In this document: positions 5,858 to 26,751 of the stretch, one piece after another
Position numbering within the stretch: the first letter of the stretch is position 1
How the letters are laid out: each line of letters opens with the position of its first letter
From: Gammaproteobacteria bacterium
Lineage (GTDB): Bacteria > Pseudomonadota > Gammaproteobacteria > UBA4575
Reading direction: 5' to 3'
Assembly (NCBI GenBank): GCA_965243395.1
Contig: CBDEUS010000002.1
Location: 704,001 to 768,000, forward strand
Length of the DNA: 64,000 bases
Notes under the pieces: model-generated
What the model saw: only the letters and a program-made list of their open reading frames with translations
What the model was told of the DNA's origin: nothing
The model's database searches: none
Translations under genes and position numbers: made by a program

Positions 5858-5887
5858 AATATAATTGATTATTGATTTGGAGAATTC

Positions 5888-9092: not shown

Positions 9093-9171
9093 GCACATAC
9101 TATACATTTCTTAATAATTTTTTCTGATTCTGCTATGGTTTTAAAACCATTCCAGCAGATTAGGATTAATT

Positions 9172-9741: not shown

Positions 9742-10121
9742 TGCCTGATACTAAAATTTTACTTTCGATAATCGAATTAGGTGGGTATCCAGATTTAACT
9801 GCTGTATACAAAAAACATGGCTATGAACCTATTGTCGTGTATAGCATGCGCAAAGCGCTAGGTGCATTAAAGAAAATAAAACCGTCCATTATCGTGGCGG
9901 AATTTAACTACCAATCTGACTTCAGAGACCGCACAAGCACACTGGAATCCTTGATAGCAGTTGCGCAGCGTAATGTAGCAATGAAGGTCATCGTATTCTA
10001 TGAAAAAGAATATGCTCATCAATTTGAAAAACTGAAAGCGCGTTATAACTTTTTTGCTGCTTTCTCCTATCCGATAGAGGAAGCACAAATTGATAAAGTA
10101 CTTTTTGATTTGAACACTTAG
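9741..10121 (+). CDS. Hypothetical protein, receiver-like alpha/beta fold
   Basis: 126-aa ORF coupled to the NUDIX stop. Alternating beta/alpha pattern ending in FSYPI, with no canonical phospho-acceptor Asp. Confidence 0.55.
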   Translation: MPDTKILLSIIELGGYPDLTAVYKKHGYEPIVVYSMRKALGALKKIKPSIIVAEFNYQSDFRDRTSTLESLIAVAQRNVAMKVIVFYEKEYAHQFEKLKARYNFFAAFSYPIEEAQIDKVLFDLNT

Positions 10122-10439
10122 CTATTTTGCCTTGGAACCTCCAAGGCAAGGTGGGGATTTCCGTATTTCACCATTTTTTTCCTGCCACTCAGTTGGGGTG
10201 AGTGTATGTAAAGATAAGGCATGAACTGGGCCACTTAATTCTTCTTTTAATAACTGGTTCAGCATGCGATGTCGTGCCACAAGCATCTTATTATCAAATT
10301 CGCTTGTAACAACTGTCACTTTAAAATGCGACTCTGAGCCAGGCGGCACATTATGCATATGGCTTTCGTTTGCTACTTCTAAATAATCAGGTTTTAAAGC
10401 CTGAGTAATTTTTTCTTCGATGTTTGCTTGTATGGTCAT
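10122..10439 (-). CDS. bolA: BolA family protein
   Basis: NESHMHNVP, SESHFKV, ARHR, VHALSLHT and SPPCLGG. Confidence 0.95.
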   Translation of the reverse strand: MTIQANIEEKITQALKPDYLEVANESHMHNVPPGSESHFKVTVVTSEFDNKMLVARHRMLNQLLKEELSGPVHALSLHTLTPTEWQEKNGEIRKSPPCLGGSKAK

Positions 10440-10483
10440 ATAACAGTATGGCTAAAAGTTTGAGTCTAAATAAATAATATACA

Positions 10484-11281
10484 CTAGTTTATAGAAAAAA
10501 ATTCCTTTGCAGTTAGAGTGGTCTCTTCGGCAGTTTGTTCAATACTTGTATTGCGGCAATTTGCCACAGTTTTCAATATATGTGGGAGAAATGCGGGTTC
10601 ATTGCGTCTGCCATCGGGTTTGGGATATTCGTCTTTGGGTAGGTTTCTGGGTAAAAGATAAGGGGAATCAGTTTCAATCATAAGTCTGTTTGCGGGGATT
10701 TTTTTTACTGATTCATGTAAGTGTAGGCCACGGCGTTCATCACATATCCAACCTGTGACTCCAATGTGACAGTCTAAATCCAAATAAGTCTCAAGTTCTT
10801 CGTTGGTGCCGGTAAAGCAATGAACAACTACCTTGTTTAAGTGTTTTCTGTGTTCAGAAAGAATTTTTACAAAATCTTCATGTGCGTCACGTTCATGAAG
10901 AAAAATTGGCATATTAAGCTCAGCAGCAAGCTCCAACTGTGCTTTAAAAGTAATTTTCTGTTGCTCTGGGGGAGAGTAGTTACGATTAAAATCTAAACCT
11001 GCTTCACCAATGGCAACCACATTATTATTTTTTGCGAGAGTTTTTAATTGATCGTAGCTATCGTCTTGCCAGTTTTTAGCCAGATGAGGGTGTACACCTG
11101 CTGTTGACACCATACCTTTATATTCTAATGAAAGCTTTAAAGCATATTCACTTTCATCTACATCGGAGCCTGTTAAAACAAAATAATTTACGCCTGCTTG
11201 ATTAGCGCGTTTAACTACCTCATCTGCATCTTTGCGAAACGCACTGCTGGTAAAATTAAAACCAATGTCAACCAGTTCCAT
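10484..11281 (-). CDS. tatD: TatD family hydrolase
   Basis: DIGFN, TAGVHPH, GEAGLD, HERDAH, HCFTG, ETDSPYL and RNEP. Confidence 0.93.
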   Translation of the reverse strand: MELVDIGFNFTSSAFRKDADEVVKRANQAGVNYFVLTGSDVDESEYALKLSLEYKGMVSTAGVHPHLAKNWQDDSYDQLKTLAKNNNVVAIGEAGLDFNRNYSPPEQQKITFKAQLELAAELNMPIFLHERDAHEDFVKILSEHRKHLNKVVVHCFTGTNEELETYLDLDCHIGVTGWICDERRGLHLHESVKKIPANRLMIETDSPYLLPRNLPKDEYPKPDGRRNEPAFLPHILKTVANCRNTSIEQTAEETTLTAKEFFSIN

Positions 11282-11292
11282 AAAATATATAT

Positions 11293-12123
11293 TTACGCTA
11301 AGTGTGCGCAGTTTTCACAATATTCACCTTCTTCATCAGATAAAACAATCTGACAATGTCGGCAAAGACGTGTAAACGTTGGCTGTAGATTTGCGTCAAG
11401 ACACACACGATCATCAAATACAAAGCACTCACCATGCCAATGTTGATTTTGATATTTTTCTAAGTATTTAATTATTCCACCTTCAAGCTGGTACACCTCT
11501 TTAAATCCATATGTAGCAAGTATTGGCGCACCTTTTTCACAACGAATCCCTCCTGTGCAAAAAGTAACAACAGGTTTGTCTTTTGGAAGTTGATTGATTT
11601 TTTCTTGTAGGCCCACGATATCTCGAAAATTTCTCATCCCTAAATTTTTTGAATGGTTAAAACTACCCAAGTCTATTTCAAAGGTATTTCTCATATCGAG
11701 CAGGGTAATATCTTTGCCTTCATCCAGCCATTCTTTAAAGTCATCGATTGATATATGCTGAGCTTTATTTTCATGATTAATATCGTTGCATGGCTCATCA
11801 GGTATCTCATCAAATCCTAATGGCCGAGTTGGAACCAGTTCTTTTCTGACTTTTATAAGCAGCCGTTTAAAGGGAATGTTTTCAGAGAAAGAAGTGTTGA
11901 GCAATAAATCTTTTACACCACATTGCTTATTCAGTTCCCGCAAAAAATAATCAATATCGCTTTGAGTGCTTGCAATTCCGAGATTAATACCTTCAGAACT
12001 GATAAAAATATTACCTTTTATATGCGTCTGGCTACAAATAGACTGAGTATGCTCAAATACTTCGGCCGTATCGTCAATTGCAGTGTATTTATAGCCCGCA
12101 ATATTAGTAATTTGTTGAGACAT
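11293..12123 (-). CDS. trhO: Rhodanese-domain tRNA U34 hydroxylase TrhO (YceA-like)
   Basis: EGIN, CTGGIRCEK, LEGGIIKY and GECFVFDDR. The start is more likely MSQQ at 12123, because the 12201 start overlaps pepN. Confidence 0.85.
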   Translation of the reverse strand: MSQQITNIAGYKYTAIDDTAEVFEHTQSICSQTHIKGNIFISSEGINLGIASTQSDIDYFLRELNKQCGVKDLLLNTSFSENIPFKRLLIKVRKELVPTRPLGFDEIPDEPCNDINHENKAQHISIDDFKEWLDEGKDITLLDMRNTFEIDLGSFNHSKNLGMRNFRDIVGLQEKINQLPKDKPVVTFCTGGIRCEKGAPILATYGFKEVYQLEGGIIKYLEKYQNQHWHGECFVFDDRVCLDANLQPTFTRLCRHCQIVLSDEEGEYCENCAHLA

Positions 12124-12180
12124 AAAACCAAATAAAACAGTACTTAACAAAGATAACAATAATGAGTTAGGGTAGTCATT

Positions 12181-14790
12181 ATGAAAGAAGGACAACCACA
12201 AGCGGTATATCTAAAAGACTATACACCACCGAATTATCTCATTGATGAAGTTGAATTGGACTTTTTACTTGGTGAGGAGATTACAAAAGTCATCTCGCAT
12301 TTACAATTGCGTCGTAATCCTGATTATTTGGGTAATGATGAAACTTTAGAACTACACGGTGAAGAGCTTGAGCTCAAATCAGTCGAGCTTGAGGGAAAAC
12401 AATTAAATCCTCAACAATATATTCAGTCAGACGAGACTTTATTAATTCCAAATGCACCCCAACATTTTTCTCTTAAAATTGAAACCCATATCACGCCTCA
12501 GACTAATACTTCTCTAGAGGGTTTATATAAATCCAGCGGGAATTTTTGTACCCAGTGTGAAGCCGAGGGTTTTCGTAAAATTACTTATTTTTTAGATCGG
12601 CCAGATGTAATGTCTAAATACACTGTGCGTATTCAGGCAGACAAATCACGTTACCCGGTTTTATTGTCCAATGGCAATCTAAAAGAACAGGGAGAATTAG
12701 AAGCTGGACAGCATTTTGCTATTTGGCAAGACCCTTTTCCCAAGCCGAGTTATTTATTTGCTCTCGTGGCGGGTAACTTAGTGTACTTAGAAGGCATGCA
12801 TCGTACTGCATCGGGTAAAGAAATTGTATTGCGAATTTATTCAGAAAAACACAATGCTGATAAATGTGAACATGCTTTGCAATCTTTGAAAAAAGCCATG
12901 CAATGGGATGAAGACCGTTTTGGTTTGGAGTGTGATTTAGATATTTACATGATTGTTGCGGTCGATGATTTCAATATGGGCGCAATGGAGAATAAAGGCT
13001 TAAATATTTTTAATTCCAGTTGTGTGTTAGCCACATCAAAAACCGCAACTGATAACGAATTCATGCATATTGAGGCCGTCGTTGCACACGAATATTTTCA
13101 TAACTGGACAGGTAATCGAGTCACATGCAGGGATTGGTTTCAATTAAGTTTGAAAGAAGGTTTAACGGTTTTTCGTGACCAAGAATTTACTTCCGACGTC
13201 ACTTCCCGTGCAGTGAAAAGAATTAGTGATGTCCGCGCATTACGAGCTTATCAGTTTGCAGAAGATGCGAGTCCTATGGCACATCCAGTACGCCCTGCAT
13301 CTTTTATGGAAATCAATAATTTCTACACCCTGACGGTATATGAAAAAGGCGCTGAAATCGTACGCATGTATCAAATGATGTTTGGTGTCGAAGGCTTTCG
13401 CAAAGGCATGGATTTATATTTTGAGCGCCATGATGGTCAAGCTGTAACGACTGATGATTTTGCCGCAGCAATGGCAGATGCAAATGGTGCAGATTTAGAC
13501 CAATTTAAACTCTGGTATGAGCAGGCGGGTACACCGGTAGTAACAGTAGAAGATCAGTGGGATGCAGTAACAGATACATACTCTTTAAAATGTACTCAAA
13601 CCTGCCCACCTACACCTGAAAGCACAGATAAACAACCATTTGTGATTCCTTTAAAAACATCAGTATTAGATGAAAAGGGAGAAGTGCTTGTAGATGCACA
13701 AGTTTTGAATTTACATCAACGTCAACAATCTTTTGAATTTAAAAATATAGTAAGCAAACCTATTCCTGATTTATTGCAGGAGTTTTCAGCTCCTGTGCAA
13801 TTGCAATATTTATATACAGACGAACAATTAGCCTTTTTGTTAAAACATTCTAATGATGCATTTAATCGTTGGGATGCTGGTAATAGACTGGCTTTAAACG
13901 TATTACAAGAAGATGTTTCTGAGCAAAAAAATACTGGTGGATCACATTCGCTTGCTACATTAAAAGATGCGTTAAAGCATGCTTTACAACTACAAGCAAC
14001 CGAAGCTAGTTTACTCGCCGAACTATTAATATTACCGAATGAAAAAGATTTAGAAGAACGCCTTGAAAAAATTGATATGCGAATATGTGTGTTGGCAAGT
14101 GAAAGCTTGCAAAAGGATATAGCCGAGCATTTAGAAGCTGATCTCTTAAAAACTTATCACGCCTTTAGTAAAAATGTTGCTTATCAATATAATGCTGAAG
14201 AGATGGCGCGCCGAAAATTGCAAAATATTTGTTTGCAGCTATTAAACACTTTAGATAACTCTGAGTACAAAATTCTCGCACTTGAGCAATATAAACGTGC
14301 GAGTAATATGACTGAACAAGTGGGCGCCATAAATGCCTTAATTCATTTTGAATCTGATCAGCGAGAACAGGCATTAACTGCTTTTGAAAAACAATGGCAA
14401 CATGATGGGTTAGTAATGGATAAATGGCTGGCTTTCCAGGCACGCTCGAAAGTACCTGGTGCACTTGATAATGTTAAAGCGCTTATGCAGCATTCTGTTT
14501 TCAAAATTACAAACCCAAATAAAGTCAGGGCTCTTATCGGCGCTTTCGCTGGACAAAATGCTTATCATTTTCATAACCCAGATGGCAGTGGTTATGAATT
14601 TATTGCGCAACAAGTGATTGCATTAAATGAAATAAATCCGCAAGTAGCTTCACGTTTGGTGAGAACTTTAATGCGCTGGGAAAGTTATCTTGACCCATGT
14701 GGCGAAAAAATGCGTGGGCAATTAAAAATGATTGCTTCACATAGTAATCTTTCTAGGGATGTATACGAAATCGTCACAAAAAGTCTGTAA
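12181..14790 (+). CDS. pepN: Aminopeptidase N (M1 family)
   Basis: TQCEAEGFR, GAMENKGLNIFN, HEYFH...E and YEKGAE. Confidence 0.97.
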   Translation: MKEGQPQAVYLKDYTPPNYLIDEVELDFLLGEEITKVISHLQLRRNPDYLGNDETLELHGEELELKSVELEGKQLNPQQYIQSDETLLIPNAPQHFSLKIETHITPQTNTSLEGLYKSSGNFCTQCEAEGFRKITYFLDRPDVMSKYTVRIQADKSRYPVLLSNGNLKEQGELEAGQHFAIWQDPFPKPSYLFALVAGNLVYLEGMHRTASGKEIVLRIYSEKHNADKCEHALQSLKKAMQWDEDRFGLECDLDIYMIVAVDDFNMGAMENKGLNIFNSSCVLATSKTATDNEFMHIEAVVAHEYFHNWTGNRVTCRDWFQLSLKEGLTVFRDQEFTSDVTSRAVKRISDVRALRAYQFAEDASPMAHPVRPASFMEINNFYTLTVYEKGAEIVRMYQMMFGVEGFRKGMDLYFERHDGQAVTTDDFAAAMADANGADLDQFKLWYEQAGTPVVTVEDQWDAVTDTYSLKCTQTCPPTPESTDKQPFVIPLKTSVLDEKGEVLVDAQVLNLHQRQQSFEFKNIVSKPIPDLLQEFSAPVQLQYLYTDEQLAFLLKHSNDAFNRWDAGNRLALNVLQEDVSEQKNTGGSHSLATLKDALKHALQLQATEASLLAELLILPNEKDLEERLEKIDMRICVLASESLQKDIAEHLEADLLKTYHAFSKNVAYQYNAEEMARRKLQNICLQLLNTLDNSEYKILALEQYKRASNMTEQVGAINALIHFESDQREQALTAFEKQWQHDGLVMDKWLAFQARSKVPGALDNVKALMQHSVFKITNPNKVRALIGAFAGQNAYHFHNPDGSGYEFIAQQVIALNEINPQVASRLVRTLMRWESYLDPCGEKMRGQLKMIASHSNLSRDVYEIVTKSL

Positions 14791-14812
14791 ATAAAAATCT
14801 CATTATTGCCTA

Positions 14813-16333
14813 TTGACATCATCAACTGATCAATTTCGTTCTCACCGTGCGCTGGATGTATTAGAGCGTATTGGCAATCGTTTGCCTGATCCGGCTGCAT
14901 TATTTGTTATTGGTCTTTTTATTATCATGCTCCTATCACACATCGCTGTGTTATTGGATTGGTCGGTTACGAATTCTTCTACTAAGCAGGTGATTACTGC
15001 AAATAGCTTGTTAAGTAGTGCTGGAATATGGTGGTTGCTAAGTCACTTGGTCGAAAACTTTATTCAGTTTCCACCCTTAGGAATTGTACTGGTGGGTATG
15101 TTAGGAATTGGACTTGCCGATCGAAGCGGTTTATTGCCAACTGCATTGCAGATGGCGAGTATGCGCGTCAAAGGAGTGTGGTTGTCGCCAGCTATGATAT
15201 TCCTGGGCATTATGTCATCGGTGGCATTAGATGCAGGTTATGTAGTGTTACCTCCGATTGCTGCAGTATTATTCATTTTAGCTAATCGATCTCCTATAGC
15301 AGGTATAGCCGCGGCTTTTGCAGGAGTTTCGGCAGGGTTTGGGGCAAATCTTTTCATCACAAGTTTAGATCCAATGTTGGCGGGCTTTTCGCAGTCGGGA
15401 GCATCTTTAATCGATCAAAATTATCGCGTAGCAGTTACAGCTAATTGGTGGTTTATGATTGCGTCAACTGTGATGTTAACCGCAGTAGGTTGGTTTGTTA
15501 CTGAAAAGTTTGTAGAACCAAGATTTAGTGCTAGTAAAGAAATAGTTATTCCTAAGCGCATTAAGCAACAAACAGGGGTAAATCCAAAGGAAAAAACGGC
15601 AGTTTATTTTGCTTTGTTTAGTGTGTTGATCATTTTAGCGATAATAATAGCTTGTACGGTAATACCTGGGACGGCGCTTTATGGCCAAGGCAAATATTTC
15701 CCACGCTGGGTTGAAGTAACAGTACCTCTTTTATTTATTGTTTTTTTAGTACCAGGAATTATCTATGGTGTGCTGGCGGGAACAATAAAGTCTCATCGCG
15801 ATATAGCTAACATGATGGCCGACACACTTGCGTCAATGGGACCTTATATTGTTTTGGCTTTTTTTGCAGCGCAATTTATTGAAGCATTTAAGTATTCTCA
15901 TCTAGGTGAAATGTTAGCGATTGGGGGAGGTCAATGGTTAGCGGCTACAAATCTTAGTGTGTATTTTTTAATTGCTGTCTTTATATTAATTGTGATGTTC
16001 GGAAATCTCTTAATTGGTTCGATGTCTGCTAAGTATGCATTTTTTGCTCCCGTATTTGTTCCCATTTTTATGCAACTAGGTGTACGACCAGAACTTACCC
16101 AAGTTGCATATCGCATTGGGGATTCTGTTACCAATGTGATTACACCTTTGAACCCATATTTGGTTATTATTCTTGCTTTGTTGAAAGAGTATTATCCAAA
16201 GTCGGGTTTGGGCACATTAATAAGTATTATGCTTCCTTACACCATTGCATTTGCAATTGCGTGGATGTTGTTATTGTTTTTATGGATGATACTTGGAATC
16301 CCTCTGGGGCCTAACGGCTACCTTTTTTATTAA
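14813..16333 (+). CDS. AbgT family transporter
   Basis: ERIGNRLPDP, FAGVSAGFGAN and YRIGDSVTNVITP; many TM helices. Confidence 0.9.
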   Translation: MTSSTDQFRSHRALDVLERIGNRLPDPAALFVIGLFIIMLLSHIAVLLDWSVTNSSTKQVITANSLLSSAGIWWLLSHLVENFIQFPPLGIVLVGMLGIGLADRSGLLPTALQMASMRVKGVWLSPAMIFLGIMSSVALDAGYVVLPPIAAVLFILANRSPIAGIAAAFAGVSAGFGANLFITSLDPMLAGFSQSGASLIDQNYRVAVTANWWFMIASTVMLTAVGWFVTEKFVEPRFSASKEIVIPKRIKQQTGVNPKEKTAVYFALFSVLIILAIIIACTVIPGTALYGQGKYFPRWVEVTVPLLFIVFLVPGIIYGVLAGTIKSHRDIANMMADTLASMGPYIVLAFFAAQFIEAFKYSHLGEMLAIGGGQWLAATNLSVYFLIAVFILIVMFGNLLIGSMSAKYAFFAPVFVPIFMQLGVRPELTQVAYRIGDSVTNVITPLNPYLVIILALLKEYYPKSGLGTLISIMLPYTIAFAIAWMLLLFLWMILGIPLGPNGYLFY

Positions 16334-16341
16334 TTATTATC

Positions 16342-16758
16342 ATGCATGACAAAAATATAATTTCTGTATTCGAAAATGGCCCAATTCATATAAGGGGCGA
16401 TTTAGTACTTATCAATAGTGATGGCGATGTTATTGAAAAAACTGACGAATTATATTTATGCCGCTGTGGTAAATCGAATAACAAACCCTATTGTGATGGC
16501 GAGCATAAGAAAAATAATTTTTCGGAAGCTGGAAAATTTATTAAACCACCTGAGTCAGTAACGGATATTATTAATGAAGGTGTATTAGAAATTAAAGTTC
16601 AAGCAAACGGCCCTTTAATATTTAAAGGTACTGCTCTTATTCGAGATTGTGCAGAGAAAGAAATTTACCGAAAAGTAGGTGGACTATGTCGATGTGGGCA
16701 ATCTAATAACAGCCCTTTTTGTGATGGAACACATTCCAAAATAGAATTTGTAGCGTAA
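16342..16758 (+). CDS. Tandem CDGSH iron-sulfur domain protein
   Basis: LCRCGKSNNKPYCDGEH and LCRCGQSNNSPFCDGTH. Confidence 0.92.
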   Translation: MHDKNIISVFENGPIHIRGDLVLINSDGDVIEKTDELYLCRCGKSNNKPYCDGEHKKNNFSEAGKFIKPPESVTDIINEGVLEIKVQANGPLIFKGTALIRDCAEKEIYRKVGGLCRCGQSNNSPFCDGTHSKIEFVA

Positions 16759-16766
16759 TAGAGAAA

Positions 16767-17282
16767 TTAAAAGCCCTCGGTTGAGGTAAATAACCCTACT
16801 CGTAAATCTTTCGCCTTGTAAATTTCTTTATTGTCTACAGACATAATTCCGTCAGCAATTCCCATAACCGTACTTCTGCTAATTACTCTTTTAATATCGA
16901 GTCGATATTGTACGATTTTTGCAGTGGGTAGTACTTGACCCGTGAAACGGACTTCATTGACACCAAGTGCACGACCTTTTCCCGGATTACCTTGCCAGGC
17001 AATAAAAAAGCCTAATAGTTGCCACAAAGCATCTAAACCTAAACAGCCTGGCATAACAGGGTCCCCGGGGAAGTGGCAATCAAAAAACCATAAATCAGAT
17101 TTAATATCGAGCTCAGCCTCAATCATGCCTCGGTCATAACTTCCATTCTCATTTGAGATGTTAGTAATACGATCCATCATTAGCATGTTGGGCATGGGTA
17201 ATTGCGCATTACCCGGACCAAACATTTCACCTCTGCCACAAGCCAGTAGGTCTTCATAAGAAAAGGAATTTTTTTGCGTCAC
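16767..17282 (-). CDS. fabA: 3-hydroxydecanoyl-ACP dehydratase/isomerase
   Basis: [33 protein letters not shown] and GRALG. Confidence 0.97.
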
Positions 17283-17437
17283 AATGAATTGGTCTTGGTT
17301 AGCTGCATCCTTGCTGCAGTATGGTGGTGATATGCATTTATTGTTTGGAGTGTAGCAAAAGATTTTGATTATTACTTGTTATACACCAAGAATTTCAGCT
17401 TTAGCGATGTATATTGTGATGTTTTTTTCAATATATT

Positions 17438-18419: not shown

Positions 18420-18459
18420 TGTCATAGTTATGTCTAGCTTATTGTACCAATTTTGTCTG
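18420..18459. promoter_or_regulatory. Putative CarH-type operator (ACA repeats at ~11-bp period)
   Basis: Plus-strand TGT at 18420, 18431, 18443 and 18454 (minus strand ATGACA, TAGACA, GGTACA, CAGACA), immediately upstream of the MerR gene. Confidence 0.5.
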
Positions 18460-18706
18460 TTTAATAAAACATATCTAGGGCATCGTCATAGCTTTGTATT
18501 AGACAAATACCGGTCATATGAGAGGTAGCTGCTTGTGTCGTGGAGACCTTGGGTGCTATATTTATGTCATCGAAAGATCTTTATGCAAACCAAATATCCC
18601 CCATGATTTTGGTTTGTTAGGAAACAGGTATGTATATCTAGCCTATAGTCTGGATTGATACTTGTCGCAACCGTTAGGTTTTACCTGACATGAACTAGGA
18701 GCGAAC

Positions 18707-19855
18707 ATGAAGAAACTATTAATCAACGCGCGCTATTTTTTAGCCCCGTTTTTAATATTAGCGAGTTTATTCGGTGTATTAGCGGGGGGTCCATGGGTAT
18801 GGACCGGCGTATTACTACTGGGACTGGGTATCATCATAGACACCCTGACAACAGCACAAACACCCGGCGCGGGATTTGACGAAAACGGCGACACCAACGG
18901 CATCGTGCCCTTACTGAATGGCACCATGTACGGCATGCTGGCGGTATTTGTCCTTTTGCAACTGGCCCTTGCCTGGCGCATCTGGCAATACACCAACGGC
19001 GTCCCTGTTGTACCGGGGGGTGAAACCATCCTGGGCCTTGCGGTTCAAGACGGCATCACCGGCAGCCAACTTGTAGGCGCAGTACTATCCACCGGCATCT
19101 TTGCCGGCATCGGCATCATCTACGGACACGAACTGGCGCACACCAAAGGCTTCAGCTTCGTGATTGCGCGCTGGATGATGGCATTAAGTGGCAAAGCCCA
19201 CTTCTGCTACGCGCACGTATACAACCACCACCTAGAACTCGGTCACCAAGACGACCCAGCGACCGCGCCACGCGGGCGCAGCATGTACGCCCACTACCCA
19301 CTATCCGGGTTGGGGCAAAGCAAATTCCTCTTCATGATGGAAAAACAACGTCTTGAAAGACTAGGAGTACCCTTCCTATCCTGGCAAAACCGCTGGATCC
19401 GAGGCTACTTCATGGCATTGCCAACCGTACTTCTGTTCTGGTTCGTAGGCGGCTGGCTTGGCATGCTCTGCTTAGCGGGCGTATGGCTGATCTCCAACTT
19501 CGAACTCGAAGTCCTCAACTACCTTGAGCACTACGGATTGATTCGCGAGAAAGGCCAACCGATTGACTACCGTCATAGCTGGGACAACTCCACCGCGTTT
19601 ACCAGCTGGTTCTTTATCGAGATTGGTCGCCAGGCCGACCATCACGATCGCGGCGAGACCCACTTTTGGGAACTCGACGAAGTGGGTGCACCGAACTGCG
19701 GACGCGGCTACTTCACCCTGTTTGCATTAGGCTTATTGCCACCGGTGTTTCATGCCTACATGAAGCAACAGTTGGCGAAGTGGGATGACGAGATGGCCTC
19801 TGAGGGCGAACTTAAGATCGCGGATCAGATGAATAAACAGGCCGGGTACGCTTAA
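18707..19855 (+). CDS. XylM/AlkB-like integral-membrane diiron monooxygenase (fatty-acid desaturase superfamily)
   Basis: HELAH, HVYNHH, NYLEHYG and QADHH boxes, DPATAPRG and a XylM-like C-terminus. AGGAG RBS. Confidence 0.9.
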   Translation: MKKLLINARYFLAPFLILASLFGVLAGGPWVWTGVLLLGLGIIIDTLTTAQTPGAGFDENGDTNGIVPLLNGTMYGMLAVFVLLQLALAWRIWQYTNGVPVVPGGETILGLAVQDGITGSQLVGAVLSTGIFAGIGIIYGHELAHTKGFSFVIARWMMALSGKAHFCYAHVYNHHLELGHQDDPATAPRGRSMYAHYPLSGLGQSKFLFMMEKQRLERLGVPFLSWQNRWIRGYFMALPTVLLFWFVGGWLGMLCLAGVWLISNFELEVLNYLEHYGLIREKGQPIDYRHSWDNSTAFTSWFFIEIGRQADHHDRGETHFWELDEVGAPNCGRGYFTLFALGLLPPVFHAYMKQQLAKWDDEMASEGELKIADQMNKQAGYA

Positions 19856-19880: not shown

Positions 19881-19918
19881 AAAAACCCCTGACTCCTTGT
19901 GAGACGGGGGTTTTTTTT
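19881..19918 (+). terminator. Rho-independent terminator after the monooxygenase
   Basis: aaaaacccctgactccttgtgagacggggg followed by T8. Confidence 0.85.
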
Positions 19919-19965: not shown

Positions 19966-20691
19966 ATGGTTGAAAAGTTTGATCCCCAAAAAAATATGAC
20001 TAGGCAAGAATCATTAACTGATTCAGTAAGTTCGTTACAGTCGGGAGATGAACGTGCGTGGTTTGAAAATGAGCTTATAAAATTTCAACAACAATTACGT
20101 GATTTACCAAATCAGGCGAGTAACCTTGAACGTGCCAAACTTGAACTTGAGATAGCTGAAGTATTTATCGGCTTAAATCGTTTAAATGATGCGTGGGAAA
20201 GTGCACGACCACTTGTTGAAATATTTATTGTCGAGCAAGAATTCGAATTTGCTGTGCGAACGTGTCGAGTGCTATATCAAGCTAACCATGAATTATCGAT
20301 CGCTGCATTGGGACAGGGATGTTGGTTAGCGGTAACGTATCCAATAAATCCAACTTTATCAATTGAGATGTTGCATAACATTGTCGATGAAACTCCTGAC
20401 AATTCTGACGGTGCTGCTGTTGCTGCGATGGCAGCACAATACATTGCTGATATGCGTGGTGCAGAAGATCGTGAAAATTTAATGTTTCTTACCACTCAAA
20501 TTGTAGCTAAGGTTGCTAAACGTCATCGAAATATTGAGGATGAAGAATCTATCAAAATATGGATTGAGATTTTAGAACTCAATGATACGGACCAGTTATT
20601 CACACGCTTAGCAAAAGTTATTGACGCCATAACAGCAGATAACTGGTGGTTTAACCGAGACGAACTTCGAGCGCAATTACCTGTTAATTAA
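19966..20691 (+). CDS. Helical (TPR-like) hypothetical protein
   Basis: 241-aa all-alpha ORF with host-like codon usage and WLAVTYP and DETPDNSDGAAVAA segments. Confidence 0.7.
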   Translation: MVEKFDPQKNMTRQESLTDSVSSLQSGDERAWFENELIKFQQQLRDLPNQASNLERAKLELEIAEVFIGLNRLNDAWESARPLVEIFIVEQEFEFAVRTCRVLYQANHELSIAALGQGCWLAVTYPINPTLSIEMLHNIVDETPDNSDGAAVAAMAAQYIADMRGAEDRENLMFLTTQIVAKVAKRHRNIEDEESIKIWIEILELNDTDQLFTRLAKVIDAITADNWWFNRDELRAQLPVN

Positions 20692-20855
20692 GGAAAAATT
20701 ACCTACTTGTGACCCAGGTCGCATTTTTTTTTCCACTAGTCCACTAATCCCCTCCATTTACGCAAATTCGGCGGTTTTTACTGCGAATTTATAGCTATAT
20801 CTCATTATTGAGAGAGCGATTTCTGTACATTAATCGCACTGAGAGTTGGACTTTT

Positions 20856-21410
20856 ATGGAGAGCGTGGTGAGCAGACCAGCACAAGAGGTTGGCTTCACC
20901 CTAATTGAGTTAATGATTGTCGTGGTAATCGTGGCAATTTTTGTAACTGTGGGTGTGCCAAATTTTCGAAACTTGATAAGTGATAATCGCTTAGCAACAC
21001 AAGCGAATCGCCTTGTATCGTCTTTGCAATTGGCGCGTTCTGAAGCTCTTAAGTTACGAACTCCTGTTTCTGTATGTCGTTCAACGAATGGCTCTTCATG
21101 TGCAGGGGCTGGAAATTGGGAAACAGGTTGGTTGGTTTTTGTAGATACAAATGGCAACGGTGACGTTGATGGGGAACGAATTTTGTTAGCTAACGCTGCG
21201 CTGAGTGGCAGTAACACACTTCGTGCTACAGCTGCCCCCTTTACAGATTTCATAAATTATCAACCGAATGGTTTGCAAAGCACAACCAATATTGCCACGT
21301 ACAGAATTTGTGATGGAAACAATCCTGATGTTGATCAAGGTCGGCAAATAACAGTTTCAACTACAGGGCGAGTTCAGACAGATCGCGGTGGTTTAGCCGC
21401 TTGTCCTTAA
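20856..21410 (+). CDS. fimT: Type IV minor pilin FimT/GspH family
   Basis: G-FTLIELMIVVVI prepilin cleavage motif, ARSEA, W..GWLVFVD and TGRV. ATG at 20856 preferred. Confidence 0.9.
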   Translation: MESVVSRPAQEVGFTLIELMIVVVIVAIFVTVGVPNFRNLISDNRLATQANRLVSSLQLARSEALKLRTPVSVCRSTNGSSCAGAGNWETGWLVFVDTNGNGDVDGERILLANAALSGSNTLRATAAPFTDFINYQPNGLQSTTNIATYRICDGNNPDVDQGRQITVSTTGRVQTDRGGLAACP

Positions 21411-21430
21411 GTTAATAAGGCAAATATTTT

Positions 21431-22042
21431 ATGAATAACAGTGTAAAAACTTTTACCAAGCCACAACATAAAAAATTTATGTCTGGGTTATCTTTAATTG
21501 AGATATTAGTAACGGTAGTTGTGTTGTCAATTGGTTTGTTGGGCATAGCGGGAATGCAGGCATTTGGTATGCGTTACAGTCATGATTCTTATGCACGTAG
21601 TCAAGCAACTATGTTAGCGAACGAATTAATTGAACGTATGCATGCTAATCCAGATGCAGTCGCAAATGGTGATTACGATGATGCAGATAACAATGCTGCA
21701 ATTAATTGTAATAGCGTAACGAATGATCCTGCACATGTATCCAATCCAGCACCTGCGTGTATGGGTACAGAGGTTTGTACTGTTACGGAATTAGCACAAC
21801 TCGATGTGTTTAGAGCAAAGTGTGGACAATTCTTGGCTGGACCTGGTGCACTTGTTGGTGGCGCAGCAAATTTATTACCAAATGGAAATCTAGCAATAAC
21901 ATGTACAGATTCCAGCGTAGGTGTTGCACCCGCATGCGAAGGGGATAACACACGTACTGTTACCGTTAGTTGGCAAGATCCAGATCAAAAGGGTGACGCA
22001 ACACAGACGTTGCAAGTTCAAGTTAATGCGAGATTCCTATAA
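21431..22042 (+). CDS. pilV: Type IV minor pilin PilV
   Basis: G-LSLIEILV, IGLLGIAGMQ and RSQATMLANELIERMHAN. Confidence 0.92.
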   Translation: MNNSVKTFTKPQHKKFMSGLSLIEILVTVVVLSIGLLGIAGMQAFGMRYSHDSYARSQATMLANELIERMHANPDAVANGDYDDADNNAAINCNSVTNDPAHVSNPAPACMGTEVCTVTELAQLDVFRAKCGQFLAGPGALVGGAANLLPNGNLAITCTDSSVGVAPACEGDNTRTVTVSWQDPDQKGDATQTLQVQVNARFL

Positions 22043-22044
22043 AT

Positions 22045-22800
22045 ATGAATAATGTAAATATACATAAGCAATTTGGTCTCTCAATTGTTGAATTGATGAT
22101 CGCATTAGCATTGTCATTAGTTGTAATGCTAATCACGACAAGTATCTATGTAAGCAATAAACAAACGTATCGATTTTTGGACCAATATAGTCTGCTACAG
22201 GAAAATGGACGTTTTGCAATTTTCTTTTTACGTGAGCATATTTTACAGGCTGGTTTTCCACGCCAGTCAAATGTAAATCCGTTTCCAGTTGTGCCGGGTA
22301 ACAATACAGGTACAAACGGAAGTGACACGATAACAGTGCAATTTAGATCTGCTGTAGATTGTTTAAATGATGTACCTGCTGGTGCATTACCGTTGAGACT
22401 TACTCAGAACACGTTTCAGTTAAGTGCAAATAATGAATTGACATGCAATGGAAATGGCCTTGTGGGTGGCGTAGACCAACCTGCGCAAGCTTTAGTTGAT
22501 GGAATTGTAAATTTACAAGCTGAATACGGTGTGGATACGGATGCAGATGGAATTGCGAACAGCTATGCAAATTCTACTGTTGTTGAAGCTGGAACAATTG
22601 GGGGTGCCGGTCCGGATTGGGACAATGTCGTTTCTATACGTGTTGCTGTGCTGGTTGAAGGCGAGCCAAATACTTTAGATCAACCTCAAGCGATAACTTA
22701 TAACTTATTAGGCGTTCCAGACGCGTATAACGATCGCACACCAAGGCGTGTTTTCACAACAACCATTCCTTTGCGTAATCGCAATAAGACAATTATTTAG
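22045..22800 (+). CDS. pilW: Type IV minor pilin PilW
   Basis: G-LSIVELMIAL, LQENGRFA, LVDGIVNLQAEYGVDTDADG and RRVFTTTIPLRN. Confidence 0.92.
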   Translation: MNNVNIHKQFGLSIVELMIALALSLVVMLITTSIYVSNKQTYRFLDQYSLLQENGRFAIFFLREHILQAGFPRQSNVNPFPVVPGNNTGTNGSDTITVQFRSAVDCLNDVPAGALPLRLTQNTFQLSANNELTCNGNGLVGGVDQPAQALVDGIVNLQAEYGVDTDADGIANSYANSTVVEAGTIGGAGPDWDNVVSIRVAVLVEGEPNTLDQPQAITYNLLGVPDAYNDRTPRRVFTTTIPLRNRNKTII

Positions 22801-23325
22801 GTGGTAATCATGTTGAATTCAATTAGTAAACAAAATGGTGTTGTTTTAGTTGTTGGTTTGTTGATGTTGCTTGTCATTACGATCGTTGGTGTAACGGCAA
22901 TGAGTGACACCACGATGAATGAAAGAATGACATCAAATCATCAGTTTCAAACTTTAAGTTTTCAAGCTGCAGAATCGGCCATTCACGATAATTTTAACAT
23001 ACCATCGGTTTCACCATCTGTTACCGCAGTGAATTGGTTTATTGATCCTGCACCAACAAACTATAACGTAGATATCAAGAGTGGTACTCCGTTAGGTGTA
23101 CAAGCAGACGCCAGCATTCAATTTTGTGGTGAAGAATTACCTATGGGTTCAGGTTTTTGCAATGGTCTTTCAGCTGGTTGTGATATCGACCAGGTTTTTG
23201 ATGTTACGGGTGAAGGGCAAGTGAGTGCGCTCGGCACTCAAGAGCAACATTTACGTAGGGGAGCACGTGCCATGCTTAGTGCAGGGTTAGCATTTGATAC
23301 AACGAAATGTGATCAGGTGCCATAA
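22801..23325 (+). CDS. pilX: Type IV minor pilin PilX
   Basis: QNG-VVLVVGLLMLL (no Glu5), ERM and FQAAESAI. Confidence 0.88.
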   Translation: MVIMLNSISKQNGVVLVVGLLMLLVITIVGVTAMSDTTMNERMTSNHQFQTLSFQAAESAIHDNFNIPSVSPSVTAVNWFIDPAPTNYNVDIKSGTPLGVQADASIQFCGEELPMGSGFCNGLSAGCDIDQVFDVTGEGQVSALGTQEQHLRRGARAMLSAGLAFDTTKCDQVP

Positions 23326-23376
23326 ATCAAATAAAAGGATTTTTTTATGATATTTATTAATGAGAGTTGGAATTTT

Positions 23377-26300
23377 ATGAAAACGTTAACACAGAAAGTT
23401 AGTTTGCTTGCGTTTGTAAGCACAATTGTATTTATTAGTGGTTTTACAAACGTCTTTGCAGAAGACATAGAGATTTATGATCGCATTCAAACAGAACCTA
23501 ATGTTCTGTTTATTCTCGATCAATCTGAAAGTATGTTAGAGCTTGTTGGAAGCACAGGCTTAACTCGTGATCAAATTGTTAAGCAGGCATTTCAACAAGT
23601 CATGAGCCAAACATACAACAACCTTAATGTAGGGTTTATGGATTATGGTCGCAATAATGGTGCAGGTGTAGATCTTCCCGTTGCAGATGTTAACGAGCTT
23701 GCAAGAAATATTGAACCTAATGTTGTGAGCACTACCGAGACTTATGCATCAATGTTAAGTCGGTTTGTTGCAAATGTAGAAGGCCCTCAACCCAATGCAA
23801 AAACGGCAACTGTCGAAGCACTATTGGAAGCTGCCAAGTATTATCGTGGAGAAATTCTAGACAATAAAAGCCAGGGTTACCAAGGTCCTCCAGGTATATG
23901 GAATGATGGTGACTCCGATTATTGGGATTCTGTTACTGGTTCCGGAAATTCTCACTGGCGTGCTGCGGGTCCTCGCACATACTCAGGTGGTAGTTGGCAA
24001 TCTTCAAGTACACCAGGGCCTTATGGACCAACTTGTAAAACGACAAACATAGCAGGAGTATCACTACCTGTTTGTACTAATCCTTGGCCAGGTAGTTGTT
24101 GGAATGTGCCTTATCAACCACCGGTAAATAATCCATTTGTTCCGAGTCACCCTCATGGTTCTAAATGTATTGACCCACCTGGATACGGGTGTTTATTGTG
24201 GAATGTGGATAACACGGAGTGTGTAACATCGGGCTGCTTGGGTGGTACTGAACCTGCGTATTACCATACCCACGCAGCATCTACTACGCCTGAAGTGCCT
24301 GCACATACACGATGTAAAGAAACAGGTACATCAACTAGTACTGGTTTTAATGGAGATCGTTTCTATATCTCTCCGATTCAAACTGCATGCACCGAAAACT
24401 TTATTGTTTTGCTATCCGATGGCGGGCCAACTATTCTTGGTAATCACGAACAAACCTCGATAAAAAATATAGCGGGTATTTCATCATGTGAAAACTTGTC
24501 AGCGGCTGGTTTTAATGATCCTTCAATTCAACAAAAAGGTGTTTGTGGACCTGACTTAGTGAAAGCTTTAGCGAATGACGACCAAGCTTCTGGCGTCACG
24601 GGTATACAGACTATTAATACCTACACCGTTGGCTTTGATTTAGGAGCGGGTGCTTCAGAGGCAAAAGATTACCTACAGAAGCTAGCAACAGATGGCAATG
24701 GGCAATTTTTTGATGCAAATGGTGCTGGCGGTGTATCGGGCTTAGTAAATATTTTCCAAAATATTTTCAATTCCATTACACAAAAACCACTTACTGTGGC
24801 GCGTGTCGGATCGACTATTGATGTGAGTACATTGTCATCCAGTCGTGATGAGTTATATGTGCCTACGTTTGCAGCAGCGCCCGGTCAACCACGATGGCCT
24901 GGTAACTTAAAAGGCTACACGATGGATCCTGCGGGTTTCTTGAAAGGTCTGGATAATAATCCGGCATTTACGACCGCAGGAGATTTTAATCCTTCATCAA
25001 GAAGTTATTGGTCTGCATCTGCAGACGGCGGTAGCATTGAAAGCGGTGGTGTTGCGAGTCGATTATATCCATCAGTTCGAAATTTATATACTGATGATGG
25101 ACCAGGAACGTCACGAAGCTTTGAAGATTTGATCGCATCTAACTTTGATGAAAACGATGTTGCATTGTTTGGTTTAGTGTCTACTGGTGATGATGATGAT
25201 GATGAAGACATGGTACAAGAACATGTTGAATGGGTTCGTGGTGTGGATGTAGATGATGAAAATTCCGATGGTAGTAGCACTGACTCAAGGAATTTCATTG
25301 GTGATGCATTGCATACCGATCCAGTAGTTGCGAACTACGACGGATCTAAAACAGATCCTGTTGTGGGGGGTTCAATTGATCGTGTCGTTTACTTCATGAC
25401 TAATGAAGGTTTTATCCATGCGATTAATGTTACAGGAAACACTGATACGACCGGAGGTACTGAGTTATTTGCTTATATGCCGAGTGACTTGTTACCTAAT
25501 ACGGATCTTTTACGTAGAGATGTGGGTGGAGGTGCAAAAGTATATGGATTAGACGGCCCATTAACGTTACATCAAGTAGGTGGTCTGACAAATGTTGCAG
25601 GCAAGAAATATTTGTATTTTGGAATGCGACGCGGTGGCATGAATTATTATGCAATGGATGTAACCGATCCGCTTTCACCATCACTCATGTGGGTTATTGA
25701 GGGTGGTACAGGCGACTTCAAAGAAATGGCTCAGTCTTGGTCTAAACCAATTGTTACTAATGTAGATGTTGGTGGAACCAAAACATTAGCACTCGTGTTT
25801 GGTGGAGGTTACGATACTACACAGGACTCTGCGACAACTTATACTGCGGACATTCAAGGCCGCGCAATTTATATAGTTGACGCAATAACTGGAGACAAAA
25901 TTTGGTCTGCAGGACCAAACACTCTAACGCCTAATAGTCCAGATACACACAATTTAGATTTGGCATTAGCAAATGGTATCGCTGGTGATGTATCAGTAAT
26001 TGATTTGGATAATGATACTTATGCGGACCGAATTTATTTTGGTGATATAGGCGGTTCAATCTGGCGTATCGATATTCAAGGTGATTTAAATGGTTTGCCT
26101 GGATTTTTAAATGATTATTCAGGTTATGAATTTGCTAATTTACATGGCAACTCTACGACTGATAATAGACGCTTCTTTGGCAGACCTATTGCAGCCTTGA
26201 CACAAAACGGAAAGCTTGCGGTATCAATTGGATCAGGACATCGGTCCCATCCATTGGATCCGAATGTGCAAGATCGTTTTTATACGCTATATGATCCTAA

Positions 26301-26751
26301 TGTAAATGGTGTTCCAACTTCTGCACCTAGCGCTGTTACAGAAAGTAATCTGCAAGATATCACCGGATTCACATCTGGTTATACAAACTCATCAATGGCA
26401 GGCTGGAGATTTGATCTTGGAGTAGGTGAAAAAGTTTTCAATGAAGCGAGTGTTTTACGTGGAGAAATCTTTTTCAGTACTTATGTTCCACCAGCGACTG
26501 TATGTAGTAATGATCCAAATGGTTCAAGATTATTTGTCTTGGATCTCGAGGGTAATGCTTCAAGAGACTTAGATGGAGATGTAAGTAACGGTAAAGATTT
26601 CTTTATTACAGTAAATAATTTTGGAATACTTCCGAAGATGGCTCTTCATTATGGCTCAACAGGTCAAGTAAGGAGTGTATTTTTACCTAATGTTGGTAAT
26701 GTTTATTCAACTGGAATACTGGAAGATCGCTTCTGGACGAATAATCCTTAA
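23377..26751 (+). CDS. pilY1: Type IV pilus adhesin PilY1/PilC
   Basis: Signal peptide, vWA MIDAS (LDQSESM), WPGNLK, YGLDG, FGMRRGG, FGGGYD and Ca-binding-like DLDNDTYAD. ATG at 23377 preferred. Confidence 0.92.
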   Translation: MKTLTQKVSLLAFVSTIVFISGFTNVFAEDIEIYDRIQTEPNVLFILDQSESMLELVGSTGLTRDQIVKQAFQQVMSQTYNNLNVGFMDYGRNNGAGVDLPVADVNELARNIEPNVVSTTETYASMLSRFVANVEGPQPNAKTATVEALLEAAKYYRGEILDNKSQGYQGPPGIWNDGDSDYWDSVTGSGNSHWRAAGPRTYSGGSWQSSSTPGPYGPTCKTTNIAGVSLPVCTNPWPGSCWNVPYQPPVNNPFVPSHPHGSKCIDPPGYGCLLWNVDNTECVTSGCLGGTEPAYYHTHAASTTPEVPAHTRCKETGTSTSTGFNGDRFYISPIQTACTENFIVLLSDGGPTILGNHEQTSIKNIAGISSCENLSAAGFNDPSIQQKGVCGPDLVKALANDDQASGVTGIQTINTYTVGFDLGAGASEAKDYLQKLATDGNGQFFDANGAGGVSGLVNIFQNIFNSITQKPLTVARVGSTIDVSTLSSSRDELYVPTFAAAPGQPRWPGNLKGYTMDPAGFLKGLDNNPAFTTAGDFNPSSRSYWSASADGGSIESGGVASRLYPSVRNLYTDDGPGTSRSFEDLIASNFDENDVALFGLVSTGDDDDDEDMVQEHVEWVRGVDVDDENSDGSSTDSRNFIGDALHTDPVVANYDGSKTDPVVGGSIDRVVYFMTNEGFIHAINVTGNTDTTGGTELFAYMPSDLLPNTDLLRRDVGGGAKVYGLDGPLTLHQVGGLTNVAGKKYLYFGMRRGGMNYYAMDVTDPLSPSLMWVIEGGTGDFKEMAQSWSKPIVTNVDVGGTKTLALVFGGGYDTTQDSATTYTADIQGRAIYIVDAITGDKIWSAGPNTLTPNSPDTHNLDLALANGIAGDVSVIDLDNDTYADRIYFGDIGGSIWRIDIQGDLNGLPGFLNDYSGYEFANLHGNSTTDNRRFFGRPIAALTQNGKLAVSIGSGHRSHPLDPNVQDRFYTLYDPNVNGVPTSAPSAVTESNLQDITGFTSGYTNSSMAGWRFDLGVGEKVFNEASVLRGEIFFSTYVPPATVCSNDPNGSRLFVLDLEGNASRDLDGDVSNGKDFFITVNNFGILPKMALHYGSTGQVRSVFLPNVGNVYSTGILEDRFWTNNP

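Follow-up and report, generated by a model that had tools for sequence, protein, structure and literature searches.

A glutamine in the third histidine box marks a clade of AlkB/XylM-like di-iron oxygenases with a candidate role in dimethyl sulfide oxidation

The subject of this study is a 64,000-nucleotide stretch of DNA (hereafter the window) from a gammaproteobacterium of the lineage UBA4575 – positions 704,001 to 768,000 of contig CBDEUS010000002.1 in assembly GCA_965243395.1 – and, within it, a gene for an AlkB/XylM-like membrane di-iron oxygenase in which the first histidine of the third histidine box is replaced by glutamine (Gln309). An earlier note on the same letters had listed the motifs HELAH, HVYNHH and NYLEHYG as intact and the third box as EIGRQADHH, with a Gln codon at 19631, and translation of the open reading frame (ORF) bears out every one of these. 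The note had likewise taken the gene to be a unit of its own with a terminator, which the terminator-like hairpin and T-run at 19891-19912, directly behind the stop codon, and a next gene beginning only at 19966, bear out. These and the other features discussed below are collected in Table 1.

Table 1. Features in and around the oxygenase gene, followed by the gene content of oxygenase-carrying viral contigs. aa, amino acids; SSB, PAPS, PRPP and 2OG are used as in the names of the proteins concerned.
Feature	Position in the window	Strand	Basis or remark
Gln-box AlkB/XylM-like membrane di-iron oxygenase	18707..19855	+	ORF, 382 aa; Pfam, AlphaFold2 model, Foldseek
His box 1, HELAH, residues 141-145	19127..19141	+	both His columns are His, in 118/118 and 117/118 aligned rows
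His box 2, HVYNHH, residues 170-175	19214..19231	+	three His invariant, 118/118 rows
NYLEHYG, residues 271-277; Glu and His are the counterparts of FtAlkBG Glu271 and His272	19517..19537	+	alignment; accessible part of PMC10113152
Box 3, EIGRQADHH, residues 305-313	19619..19645	+	sequence and alignments
Gln309 codon CAG, at the first-His position of box 3 (FtAlkBG His311)	19631..19633	+	sequence; alignment
Intrinsic-terminator-like hairpin and T-run, just 3' of the oxygenase stop codon	19891..19920	+	terminator scan
TGnTATAnT, extended -10-like element upstream of the oxygenase	18554..18562	+	conserved in at least 80% of 26 aligned intergenic regions
Four TGT units, 11-12 bp spacing, between the two divergent genes; candidate operator for the CarH-like regulator	18420..18456	+	26 aligned intergenic regions
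Divergent MerR-family regulator, CarH/LitR-like architecture without the B12-ligand residues	17438..18412	-	Pfam, PDB matches
fabA, downstream of the regulator	16767..17282	-	Pfam FabA, E 2.9e-47
Conserved 241-aa protein, behind the terminator	19966..20691	+	no Pfam or NCBIfam match
Viral loci L120, L130, L137: portal, major head protein, protease, scaffold, tail tube, baseplate hub, terminase, SSB			PHROGs
Viral locus L127, a 40.5-kb contig with the oxygenase at both ends: T7-like RNA polymerase			PHROGs
Viral locus L111: podovirus-type gene set and PAPS reductase			PHROGs
Viral loci L142, L146, L158, L169: tail chaperone and virion genes; PRPP synthase, speD, NifU, 2OG oxygenases			PHROGs

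The sole Pfam domain found in the protein is PF00487 (FA_desaturase; E 6.4e-29, 101.9 bits against a cut-off of 29.7), and an NCBIfam scan matched it to no family model. Its fold is that of AlkB: the AlphaFold2 model, built from a 36-sequence input with a mean predicted local distance difference test (pLDDT) of 92.7 and a predicted template-modelling (pTM) score of 0.90, retrieves in Foldseek the two AlkB structures of Fontimonas – 8f6t (E 3.4e-15, TM score 0.76) and 8sbb (E 1.9e-12, TM score 0.77) – which are the only solved relatives, the next match falling to a TM score of 0.39. A HMMER comparison with solved structures places the Gln opposite the first His of RHSDHH in both 8sbb (E 1.3e-26) and 8f6t (E 2.9e-24). 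At the RNA level, two short contigs (241 and 209 nt) from a sediment metatranscriptome fall on 18979-19219, at ~99% and ~90% identity, although presence in an RNA library is not the same as transcription of the gene; three sequencing runs guessed to be RNA gave no match to the oxygenase gene.

What the replaced residue does in the relatives is known from structure. In FtAlkBG, as given in the accessible part of the structure paper (PMC10113152), Fe1 is held by His137, 141, 167, 172 and 314, and Fe2 by His171, 272, 311 and 315 together with Glu271, the substrate methyl group lying closer to Fe2. Gln309 occupies the position of His311, while eight of the nine ligand His and the Glu (here Glu274) are retained. 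The nine His are described elsewhere, in the part of PMC10110569 that is accessible, as invariant across species and indispensable for function; for AlkB-type enzymes, the protein is thus a natural variant at an Fe2 ligand position described there as invariant. We infer from the sequence that iron coordination is altered, with iron ligated by or through the Gln and the Fe2 ligand set more oxygen-rich or water-mediated.

The Gln is kept in 119 of the 120 closest database proteins (72-91% identical; the remaining one lacks a readable box), in all 80 loci from species-representative genomes – the set of related loci on which every neighbour count out of 80 below is based – and in 80/80 viral loci from IMG/VR. 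It is equally present in 117/120 homologues of the distant member L192 and 113/114 homologues of the distant member L187, the other three and one, respectively, being unreadable at the box, as well as in 13/13 loci from other gammaproteobacterial families. Because it recurs across the closest, genomic, viral and distant homologues, the Gln is neither chance nor a sequencing error; the earlier note had named a singleton or a sequencing change as what would undo its proposal, and all readable clade members carry the residue. A MAFFT alignment with 118 full-length rows has His in this column for 115/115 rows outside the clade, XylM and AlkB included, while the remaining eight ligand His are essentially invariant and His275 and Gly277 of NYLEHYG are invariant in 118/118. 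A sharp gap in identity also sets the family apart: in a search of 1.84 billion cluster representatives, its members stand at 62% or more and the next relatives at 30-37%. The window protein is, in short, a genuine AlkB/XylM-family member that is both conserved and atypical.

The phylogeny against AlkB and XylM bears out the distinct subfamily that the note had proposed. In a maximum-likelihood tree of 34 rows (IQ-TREE, LG+C20+F+G4), the 15 Gln rows form one group (ultrafast bootstrap 96; Shimodaira–Hasegawa-like approximate likelihood-ratio test 98; support is given below in this order), and a single His/Gln change suffices in 97% of 200 bootstrap trees. This clade is sister (100/100) to a small His-type group with the box GIGRHSDHH, ~50% identical and drawn from some genomes of the host order, and the two together are sister to XylM (95/89), whose clade contains neither. 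The Gln side and the XylM side each sit on a fully supported stem of more than one substitution per site; the rubredoxin-linked AlkB of Pseudomonas groups elsewhere, set apart from the Gln clade by branches with 100/99-100 support. The same placement is obtained with FastTree on 126 rows. The window oxygenase has a third box of the form RQ[AGS]DHH and falls inside the clade, which we put forward as a proposed group and not as a described family.

The His-type sister paralogue was seen in locus L193 (G040 C3:99700-114800) and also in genomes G007, G015 and G020, alongside Gln-type copies; no reductase, glutathione S-transferase (GST) or globin lies near it in L193. Proteins of this kind are the natural comparison partner for the Gln/His question.

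The host genome (G000; 2.58 Mb, two contigs, 100% complete) holds three copies of the oxygenase gene. A twin of the window copy, at G000 C1:559378-560523 on the other contig, encodes an identical protein; at the DNA level the two share 99.9% identity along a tract of exactly 1152 bp that opens 3 nt ahead of the ATG and closes with the stop codon, between unrelated flanks. The third copy is 61% identical, likewise carries the Gln and is preceded by two GST genes; a FadL/TodX porin lies ~4 kb from this copy only. Its surroundings (L085, G000 C2:657000-673000) also include genes for a BLUF blue-light sensor, a truncated globin, OmpW, a Crp/Fnr-type regulator, Yip1 and cbb3 oxidase.

The contexts of window copy and twin occur together in 15 other genomes, and in 14 of them the two copies are 97.9-100% identical in DNA, the exception being a pair of contig-end fragments at 86%. 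The identical tract opens 10-15 nt ahead of the start codon and runs to 0-100 nt past the stop, and between genomes the oxygenase proteins differ by 6-29%. As the paralogues are near-identical over just the ORF while the orthologues diverge, the pattern indicates repeated gene conversion between the two loci, the simplest explanation of the twin identity. By keeping both coding sequences identical, conversion would have one protein made from two differently controlled promoters – a clear case, on this reading, of concerted evolution of an enzyme gene under two control regimes.

The twin locus also supplies what the window lacks, namely a candidate electron donor. Its order is pnp, two small genes, msrB, oxygenase, a 59-residue Fer4_19 ferredoxin, a GST and, 1.2 kb downstream of the oxygenase, a 359-residue reductase with Fer2, FAD_binding_6 and NAD_binding_1 domains. 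Along its whole length this reductase shares 40% identity with XylA of plasmid pWW53 (E 3e-90), and it is 41% identical to the reductase adjoining an AlkB-like gene of Hydrocarboniclastica. The order oxygenase–Fer4_19–GST–reductase recurs in 18/80 related loci (Fer4_19 and GST in 19/80 each), and in 9/13 loci from other families the oxygenase has a reductase no more than 2 kb away, together with either Fer4_19 and GST or a truncated globin; in three distant loci the genes run oxygenase, truncated globin, reductase. Given this adjacency in both twin-type and distant loci, the conserved core is therefore probably a XylMA-like two-component system. The claim of the earlier note that no reductase is adjacent stands for the window copy, next to which neither a rubredoxin nor a XylA-type gene is found, and fails for its identical twin, with its ferredoxin, GST and XylA-like reductase. 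Within the window, the nearest Fer2/FNR-type ORF lies 13 kb upstream and is only 28% identical to the XylA-like reductase.

A small iron–sulfur protein is encoded at each of the two loci, and both might serve the oxygenase: Fer4_19 at the twin (L084:8676-8855) and, in the window, a two-domain CDGSH protein (16342-16758, plus strand) two genes upstream of the oxygenase, seen in 13/80 related loci. FNR-type matches 4-6 kb downstream in some window-type loci were considered as a XylA-like partner and rejected, as they belong to an FNR and Fer4 protein beside a molybdopterin oxidoreductase. That pair lies at 28920-32411 (plus strand) of the window, where the molybdopterin oxidoreductase comes first and then an FNR-type reductase whose C-terminal domain is of the 4Fe-4S type; the FNR part of this protein shares 47% identity with its counterpart in the XylA-like reductase, and the pair is probably unrelated to the oxygenase.

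As to which hosts carry the Gln box, a question that the note had posed, the survey places the gene in 49/56 genomes of the host order (44/47 of the high-quality ones), in 16/400 genomes sampled from the class, spread over 11 families, and in 2/401 sampled from the phylum, both of the same class. Named relatives come from sponge-associated sulfur oxidisers, single cells labelled "Thiothrix", Cocleimonas and Methylophaga sulfidovorans, and further from Hyphomicrobium, Thiobacillus, Acidiferrobacterales and Chromatiaceae.

This distribution bears on a rival account, that of an ordinary medium- or long-chain alkane 1-monooxygenase, as databases annotate the protein and as a preprint on viral alkB does; we judge it very unlikely. 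Many homologues do bear the name "alkane 1-monooxygenase", given by the Joint Genome Institute (JGI); the accessible part of the preprint counts 275 alkB-carrying IMG/VR viruses as alkane degraders (10.64898/2025.12.08.692962); and hydrophobic residues (L267, I306) are retained where FtAlkB has L274 and L318, which the accessible part of PMC10110569 places close to the active site. Against this, the protein falls outside the AlkB clade, and one of the nine His called indispensable in that same source is replaced. The hosts are small-genome Gammaproteobacteria of the sulfur-oxidiser type in whose order the gene is near-universal, and it co-occurs with methanethiol oxidase, as set out below. No alcohol dehydrogenase, aldehyde dehydrogenase, rubredoxin or rubredoxin reductase adjoins any of the three copies in the host genome, the rest of which was not searched for rubredoxin. 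That the enzyme might prove an ordinary alkane hydroxylase had been the note's other worry; with a place outside both the AlkB and the XylM clades, and a XylA-type Fer2-FNR reductase instead of rubredoxin as conserved partner, it does not look like one.

Our best reading, towards which we lean somewhat, is that of a two-component monooxygenase acting on dimethyl sulfide (DMS), or on a very similar small methyl-sulfur compound, and yielding methanethiol. The oxygenase would be the membrane hydroxylase of a XylMA-like di-iron system, and electrons would pass from NAD(P)H through the XylA-type Fer2-FNR reductase, which in the host genome is encoded only beside the twin copy, to the oxygenase. Hydroxylation of an S-methyl group of DMS would give a hemithioacetal and, from it, methanethiol and formaldehyde; methanethiol oxidase (SBP56/MtoX) would then turn methanethiol into sulfide for a host of the sulfur-oxidiser type. 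The window copy would be a separate transcription unit under a MerR regulator that is CarH-like without the B12.

The first line of evidence is co-occurrence. Across the class sample of 400 genomes, searched with an SBP56 profile, SBP56 is found in 15/16 carriers of the oxygenase against 30/384 non-carriers (Fisher 8e-15, a statistic that ignores the kinship of genomes, related genomes not being independent), and with the host's own family excluded in 12/13 against 30/384 (p 5e-12). The sole carrier without it is an 80%-complete genome in 870 contigs. The two genes can also be neighbours, at 1.9-4.7 kb in G067, G241 and G400 (two families) and at ~17.5 kb in G200 and G366 (a third family); locus L192 has the order oxygenase, globin, reductase, SBP56 protein. 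The SBP56 matches themselves fall into two score classes, ~1e-45 and ~1e-200, and carriers belong nearly all to the low-scoring class. This suggests that a distinct bacterial MtoX subfamily travels with the oxygenase.

The second line comes from Methylophaga. The DMS degrader M. sulfidovorans has a homologue 68% identical to the window protein with the box EIGRQGDHH, and mtoX is reported for it too in the accessible part of PMC6548844; the presence of Hyphomicrobium and Thiobacillus among the named relatives points the same way. In the transcript values of Table S6 of that paper, which compare growth of M. thiooxydans, the other Methylophaga, on methanol and on DMS, a protein with a fatty acid desaturase domain (tag 226) rises from 10 to 1359, 136-fold, together with an NAD-binding oxidoreductase (tag 61; 12 to 618), the globin glbN (tag 199; 21 to 601), a FadL-type "aromatic hydrocarbon degradation" membrane protein (tag 906; 18 to 1469) and mtoX in both copies (copy 1, 37 to 17350; copy 2, 20 to 4064). 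By the accessible account M. thiooxydans has no dmoA, the gene named there as known, and no candidate for the first DMS enzyme was found (PMC6548844). A desaturase-like protein, a globin and a reductase, the three induced on DMS, correspond to the genes found together at loci of distant clade members. The guess in the earlier note that the substrate might be a methyl group of a compound such as DMS thus gains circumstantial support, from the co-occurrence and adjacency of methanethiol oxidase and from the Methylophaga expression data.

The same enzyme system could in principle oxygenate DMS at the sulfur instead, with dimethyl sulfoxide (DMSO) and not methanethiol as the product. AlkB is reported to sulfoxidise methyl thioethers, and the DMS-linked evidence would fit equally well, the MtoX link excepted; it is this link that makes the variant extremely unlikely in our judgement, as oxygenation at sulfur gives no methanethiol and leaves both the co-occurrence and the adjacency of methanethiol oxidase unexplained.

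Several points weigh against a methanethiol-forming DMS monooxygenase. The co-occurrence counts come from related genomes, and two of the SBP56-positive non-carriers (G350 and G196) are flagged as unpublished, the count without them being 28/382. In the host genome, SBP56 (G000 C1:658288-659496; E 7.4e-46, above the cut-off) is near no copy of the oxygenase: it lies 99 kb from the twin and on another contig than the window copy. M. thiooxydans tag 226 is no more than a putative member of the clade, and Boden et al., as quoted in the accessible part of PMC6548844, detected no NADH-dependent DMS monooxygenase activity in extracts of this organism, although a labile membrane enzyme could have been missed in those assays. 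The authors of that paper take the desaturase induction as membrane-lipid repair. Furthermore, neither TIGR02818 (glutathione-dependent formaldehyde dehydrogenase) nor TIGR02821 (S-formylglutathione hydrolase) is found in the genome at E 1e-20, so the conserved GST is not explained by formaldehyde capture; the idea that it captures formaldehyde for glutathione-linked oxidation was dropped on this ground. Lastly, fabA, msrB and the CarH-like regulator are neighbours that would suit a role in stress or in lipids just as well.

These neighbours deserve a closer look. The regulator that faces the oxygenase gene has a MerR_1 domain (E 6.5e-12) and a B12-binding match of 30.6 bits, under the cut-off of 32.1; its best PDB matches, at ~1e-10, are TtCarH/LitR 5c8d and 3whp. 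The axial His of CarH pairs with a Ser, in an alignment whose second stretch is weak (i-Evalue 11-12), and the Trp and Glu-His of the CarH four-helix bundle are, in the same weak alignment, not retained. With the axial His replaced and the B12 score sub-threshold, light or B12 sensing is therefore not expected of this protein. A MerR regulator stands in the same divergent position in 38/80 related loci. fabA is a neighbour in 41/80 and is absent from 10/13 distant loci, and the 241-residue protein behind the terminator is found in 32/80, at identities down to ~40%.

In the intergenic region, the -10-like element is absent from the list of the promoter scan, which applies a stricter rule. A search for four TGT units at exactly 11-bp spacing gave no match in the window, and the array was found when 11-12 bp was allowed. 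In that form it occurs four times in the 2.58-Mb genome, the one at 18420-18456 alone lying outside ORFs of at least 100 codons; the other three are taken as chance because they lie inside such ORFs. Tandem arrays of repeats spaced by about 11 bp are what we take to be the CarH operator type, and we read the TGT array, from its sequence, as a candidate operator of this kind. No such array lies upstream of the twin or of the 61% paralogue, and a shared regulon for all three copies was rejected for this reason.

Farther along the window (20808-26751, plus strand), four genes with prepilin-like N-termini (200, 203, 251 and 174 residues) precede one for a 1134-residue protein, a set that, judging the translations by eye, looks like a type IV pilus minor-pilin/PilY1 cluster. 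At a variant locus (L031:2534-5499, minus strand), a MerR regulator lies opposite the oxygenase, and behind this regulator come a DCC1-like thiol oxidoreductase, a gene of no assigned family, DUF3429 and a SOUL haem-binding protein.

It is in this setting that a role in membrane lipids has to be weighed: a desaturase or hydroxylase modifying acyl chains under oxidative or light stress, with the induction on DMS secondary to H2O2 released by methanethiol oxidase. The reading is that of PMC6548844, in its accessible part, and its other attractions lie in the neighbourhood, where fabA and the CarH-like regulator, conserved as counted above, would form a stress module with the GST and the msrB that precedes the twin copy, and where the variant locus L031 adds its MerR, DCC1-like, DUF3429 and SOUL genes. 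QxxHH is, moreover, the third-box signature of front-end fatty-acid desaturases, and cyanophages carry lipid desaturases, as phages carry the oxygenase gene. We nevertheless consider this role unlikely. NYxEHYG and the fold are those of AlkB and not of a desaturase (SCD1 reaches a TM score of 0.21), the nearest clades are XylM-type hydroxylases, and no cytochrome b5 domain is present. The synteny with fabA is limited to one lineage, and both the SBP56 link (by counts and by adjacency) and the co-induction of a FadL/TodX-type porin in Methylophaga are left unexplained.

The GST genes invite another account, in which the oxygenase serves some other volatile hydrophobic compound – toluene-like aromatics, isoprene or other alkenes – and the resulting alcohol or epoxide is conjugated by the conserved GST. 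GST steps are part of isoprene and styrene degradation, XylM and AlkB epoxidise alkenes, and the clade is sister to XylM. GSTs also flank two paralogous lineages (one gene downstream of the twin, two upstream of the 61% paralogue), with the FadL/TodX porin near the latter. The account is distinctly unlikely all the same: none of the loci examined contains downstream dehydrogenase, ring-cleavage or isoprene-pathway genes, the most divergent loci keep globin and reductase only, without a GST, and the SBP56 link and the DMS induction would go unexplained.

The oxygenase is also carried by phages. In IMG/VR, at least 126 stretches encode relatives at 66-82% identity, and PHROGs scans of ten viral loci recovered genuine phage neighbours, listed in Table 1: contigs of marine T4-like and T7-like phages carry intact copies of the oxygenase. 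In 78/78 near-full-length viral copies, boxes 1 and 2 and NYxEHYG are kept, one viral clade having lost a 21-residue loop; no GST, reductase or regulator lies within the flanks of the viral loci. A tree built from 135 distinct sequences has three all-viral clades (17, 20 and 16 rows; support 95-100) nested among bacterial lineages and forces at least five changes of label between virus and bacterium, although a few short viral contigs inside bacterial clades may be misfiled. Among GenBank phage records (INPHARED) there is no close relative, only two alkB1 genes of Acinetobacter phages at 30% identity. The accessible part of the preprint that reads the 275 alkB-carrying viruses as alkane degraders makes no mention of the His boxes. 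On some of the oxygenase-carrying phage contigs (L111:3391-4233, minus strand; L120:11031-13176, minus strand; L158:13378-15432), genes for a ferrochelatase, a FabG-like reductase and several 2OG-Fe(II) oxygenases were also seen.

Taken jointly, these strands admit a broader reading that we offer tentatively, as a possibility rather short of probable: the Gln-box clade may be the long-sought membrane-bound DMS monooxygenase of marine bacteria, its Gln retuning the substrate-side Fe2 for S-methyl oxidation, with two gene-converted copies reflecting the value of the enzyme to its host and the intact copies in abundant T4-like and T7-like marine phages serving as auxiliary genes. Among the biogenic sulfur gases given off by the sea, DMS is the principal one, and the enzyme for the first step of its breakdown is missing in key degraders such as Methylophaga, without dmoA, according to the accessible part of PMC6548844. 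In the literature covered, which leaves out subscription journals, no paper was found that assigns DMS oxidation to an AlkB/XylM-like enzyme or remarks on the Gln. The clade supplies a sequence-defined candidate with a one-residue signature, which could, if the reading holds, be counted in metagenomes. Phage infection would then act directly on the flux from DMS to methanethiol and on how much reduced sulfur is supplied in surface seawater; much of the "alkB" counted in viruses or in the sea would have nothing to do with alkane degradation; genes labelled alkane monooxygenase or fatty acid desaturase, the IMG/VR viral stretches included, would need renaming; and estimates of marine and viral hydrocarbon degradation would change.

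How the locus compares with known systems can be stated for each of its parts. The regulator, like CarH and class I LitR (for the LitR classes see the accessible part of PMC9758184), combines a MerR-type N-terminus with a C-terminal Rossmann-like domain of the B12-binding type and has repeats spaced by ~11 bp in its own intergenic region.

The oxygenase itself comes closest to XylM/XylA of TOL-type plasmids such as pWW53, XylM being the nearest named clade in the trees. The two systems share a membrane di-iron hydroxylase with the AlkB fold and NYxEHYG, a partner that is a single Fer2-FNR fusion reductase (for the twin locus, at the identity to XylA given above) and, in common with the proposed function, the hydroxylation of an activated methyl group. 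Unlike XylM, to which it is ~29-31% identical and from which long, fully supported branches separate it, the oxygenase has a third box opening with Gln and not His, extra conserved partners (Fer4_19 ferredoxin, GST or truncated globin) at its loci, and a home in bacteria of the marine sulfur-oxidiser type and in phages. No genes of the xylB, xylC or xylN type, and no benzyl-alcohol or benzaldehyde dehydrogenases, are found among the Pfam-scanned neighbours of the three copies, and a comparison with plasmids gave only distant relatives, at 34% identity or less.

With AlkB of Pseudomonas putida GPo1 and of Fontimonas thermophila (8f6t, 8sbb) the protein shares the fold, eight of nine His ligands and the Glu adjacent to HYG; it differs in being only 23-25% identical, in the change of Fe2 ligand His311 to Gln, in its place outside the AlkB clade and in its Fer2-FNR reductase partner, where AlkB uses rubredoxin and rubredoxin reductase. 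With front-end desaturases it shares the Gln that replaces the first His of the third box (QADHH), but it has no cytochrome b5 domain by Pfam and carries NYxEHYG, the hallmark of AlkB and XylM; in fold, too, it departs from the desaturases, among which SCD1 is the only one in the Foldseek list. DmoA of Hyphomicrobium sulfonivorans, finally, turns DMS, O2 and reductant into methanethiol and formaldehyde, and the likeness lies in this proposed overall reaction only: DmoA is a soluble, FMNH2-dependent enzyme of an unrelated protein family, and the Gln-box protein a membrane di-iron oxygenase.

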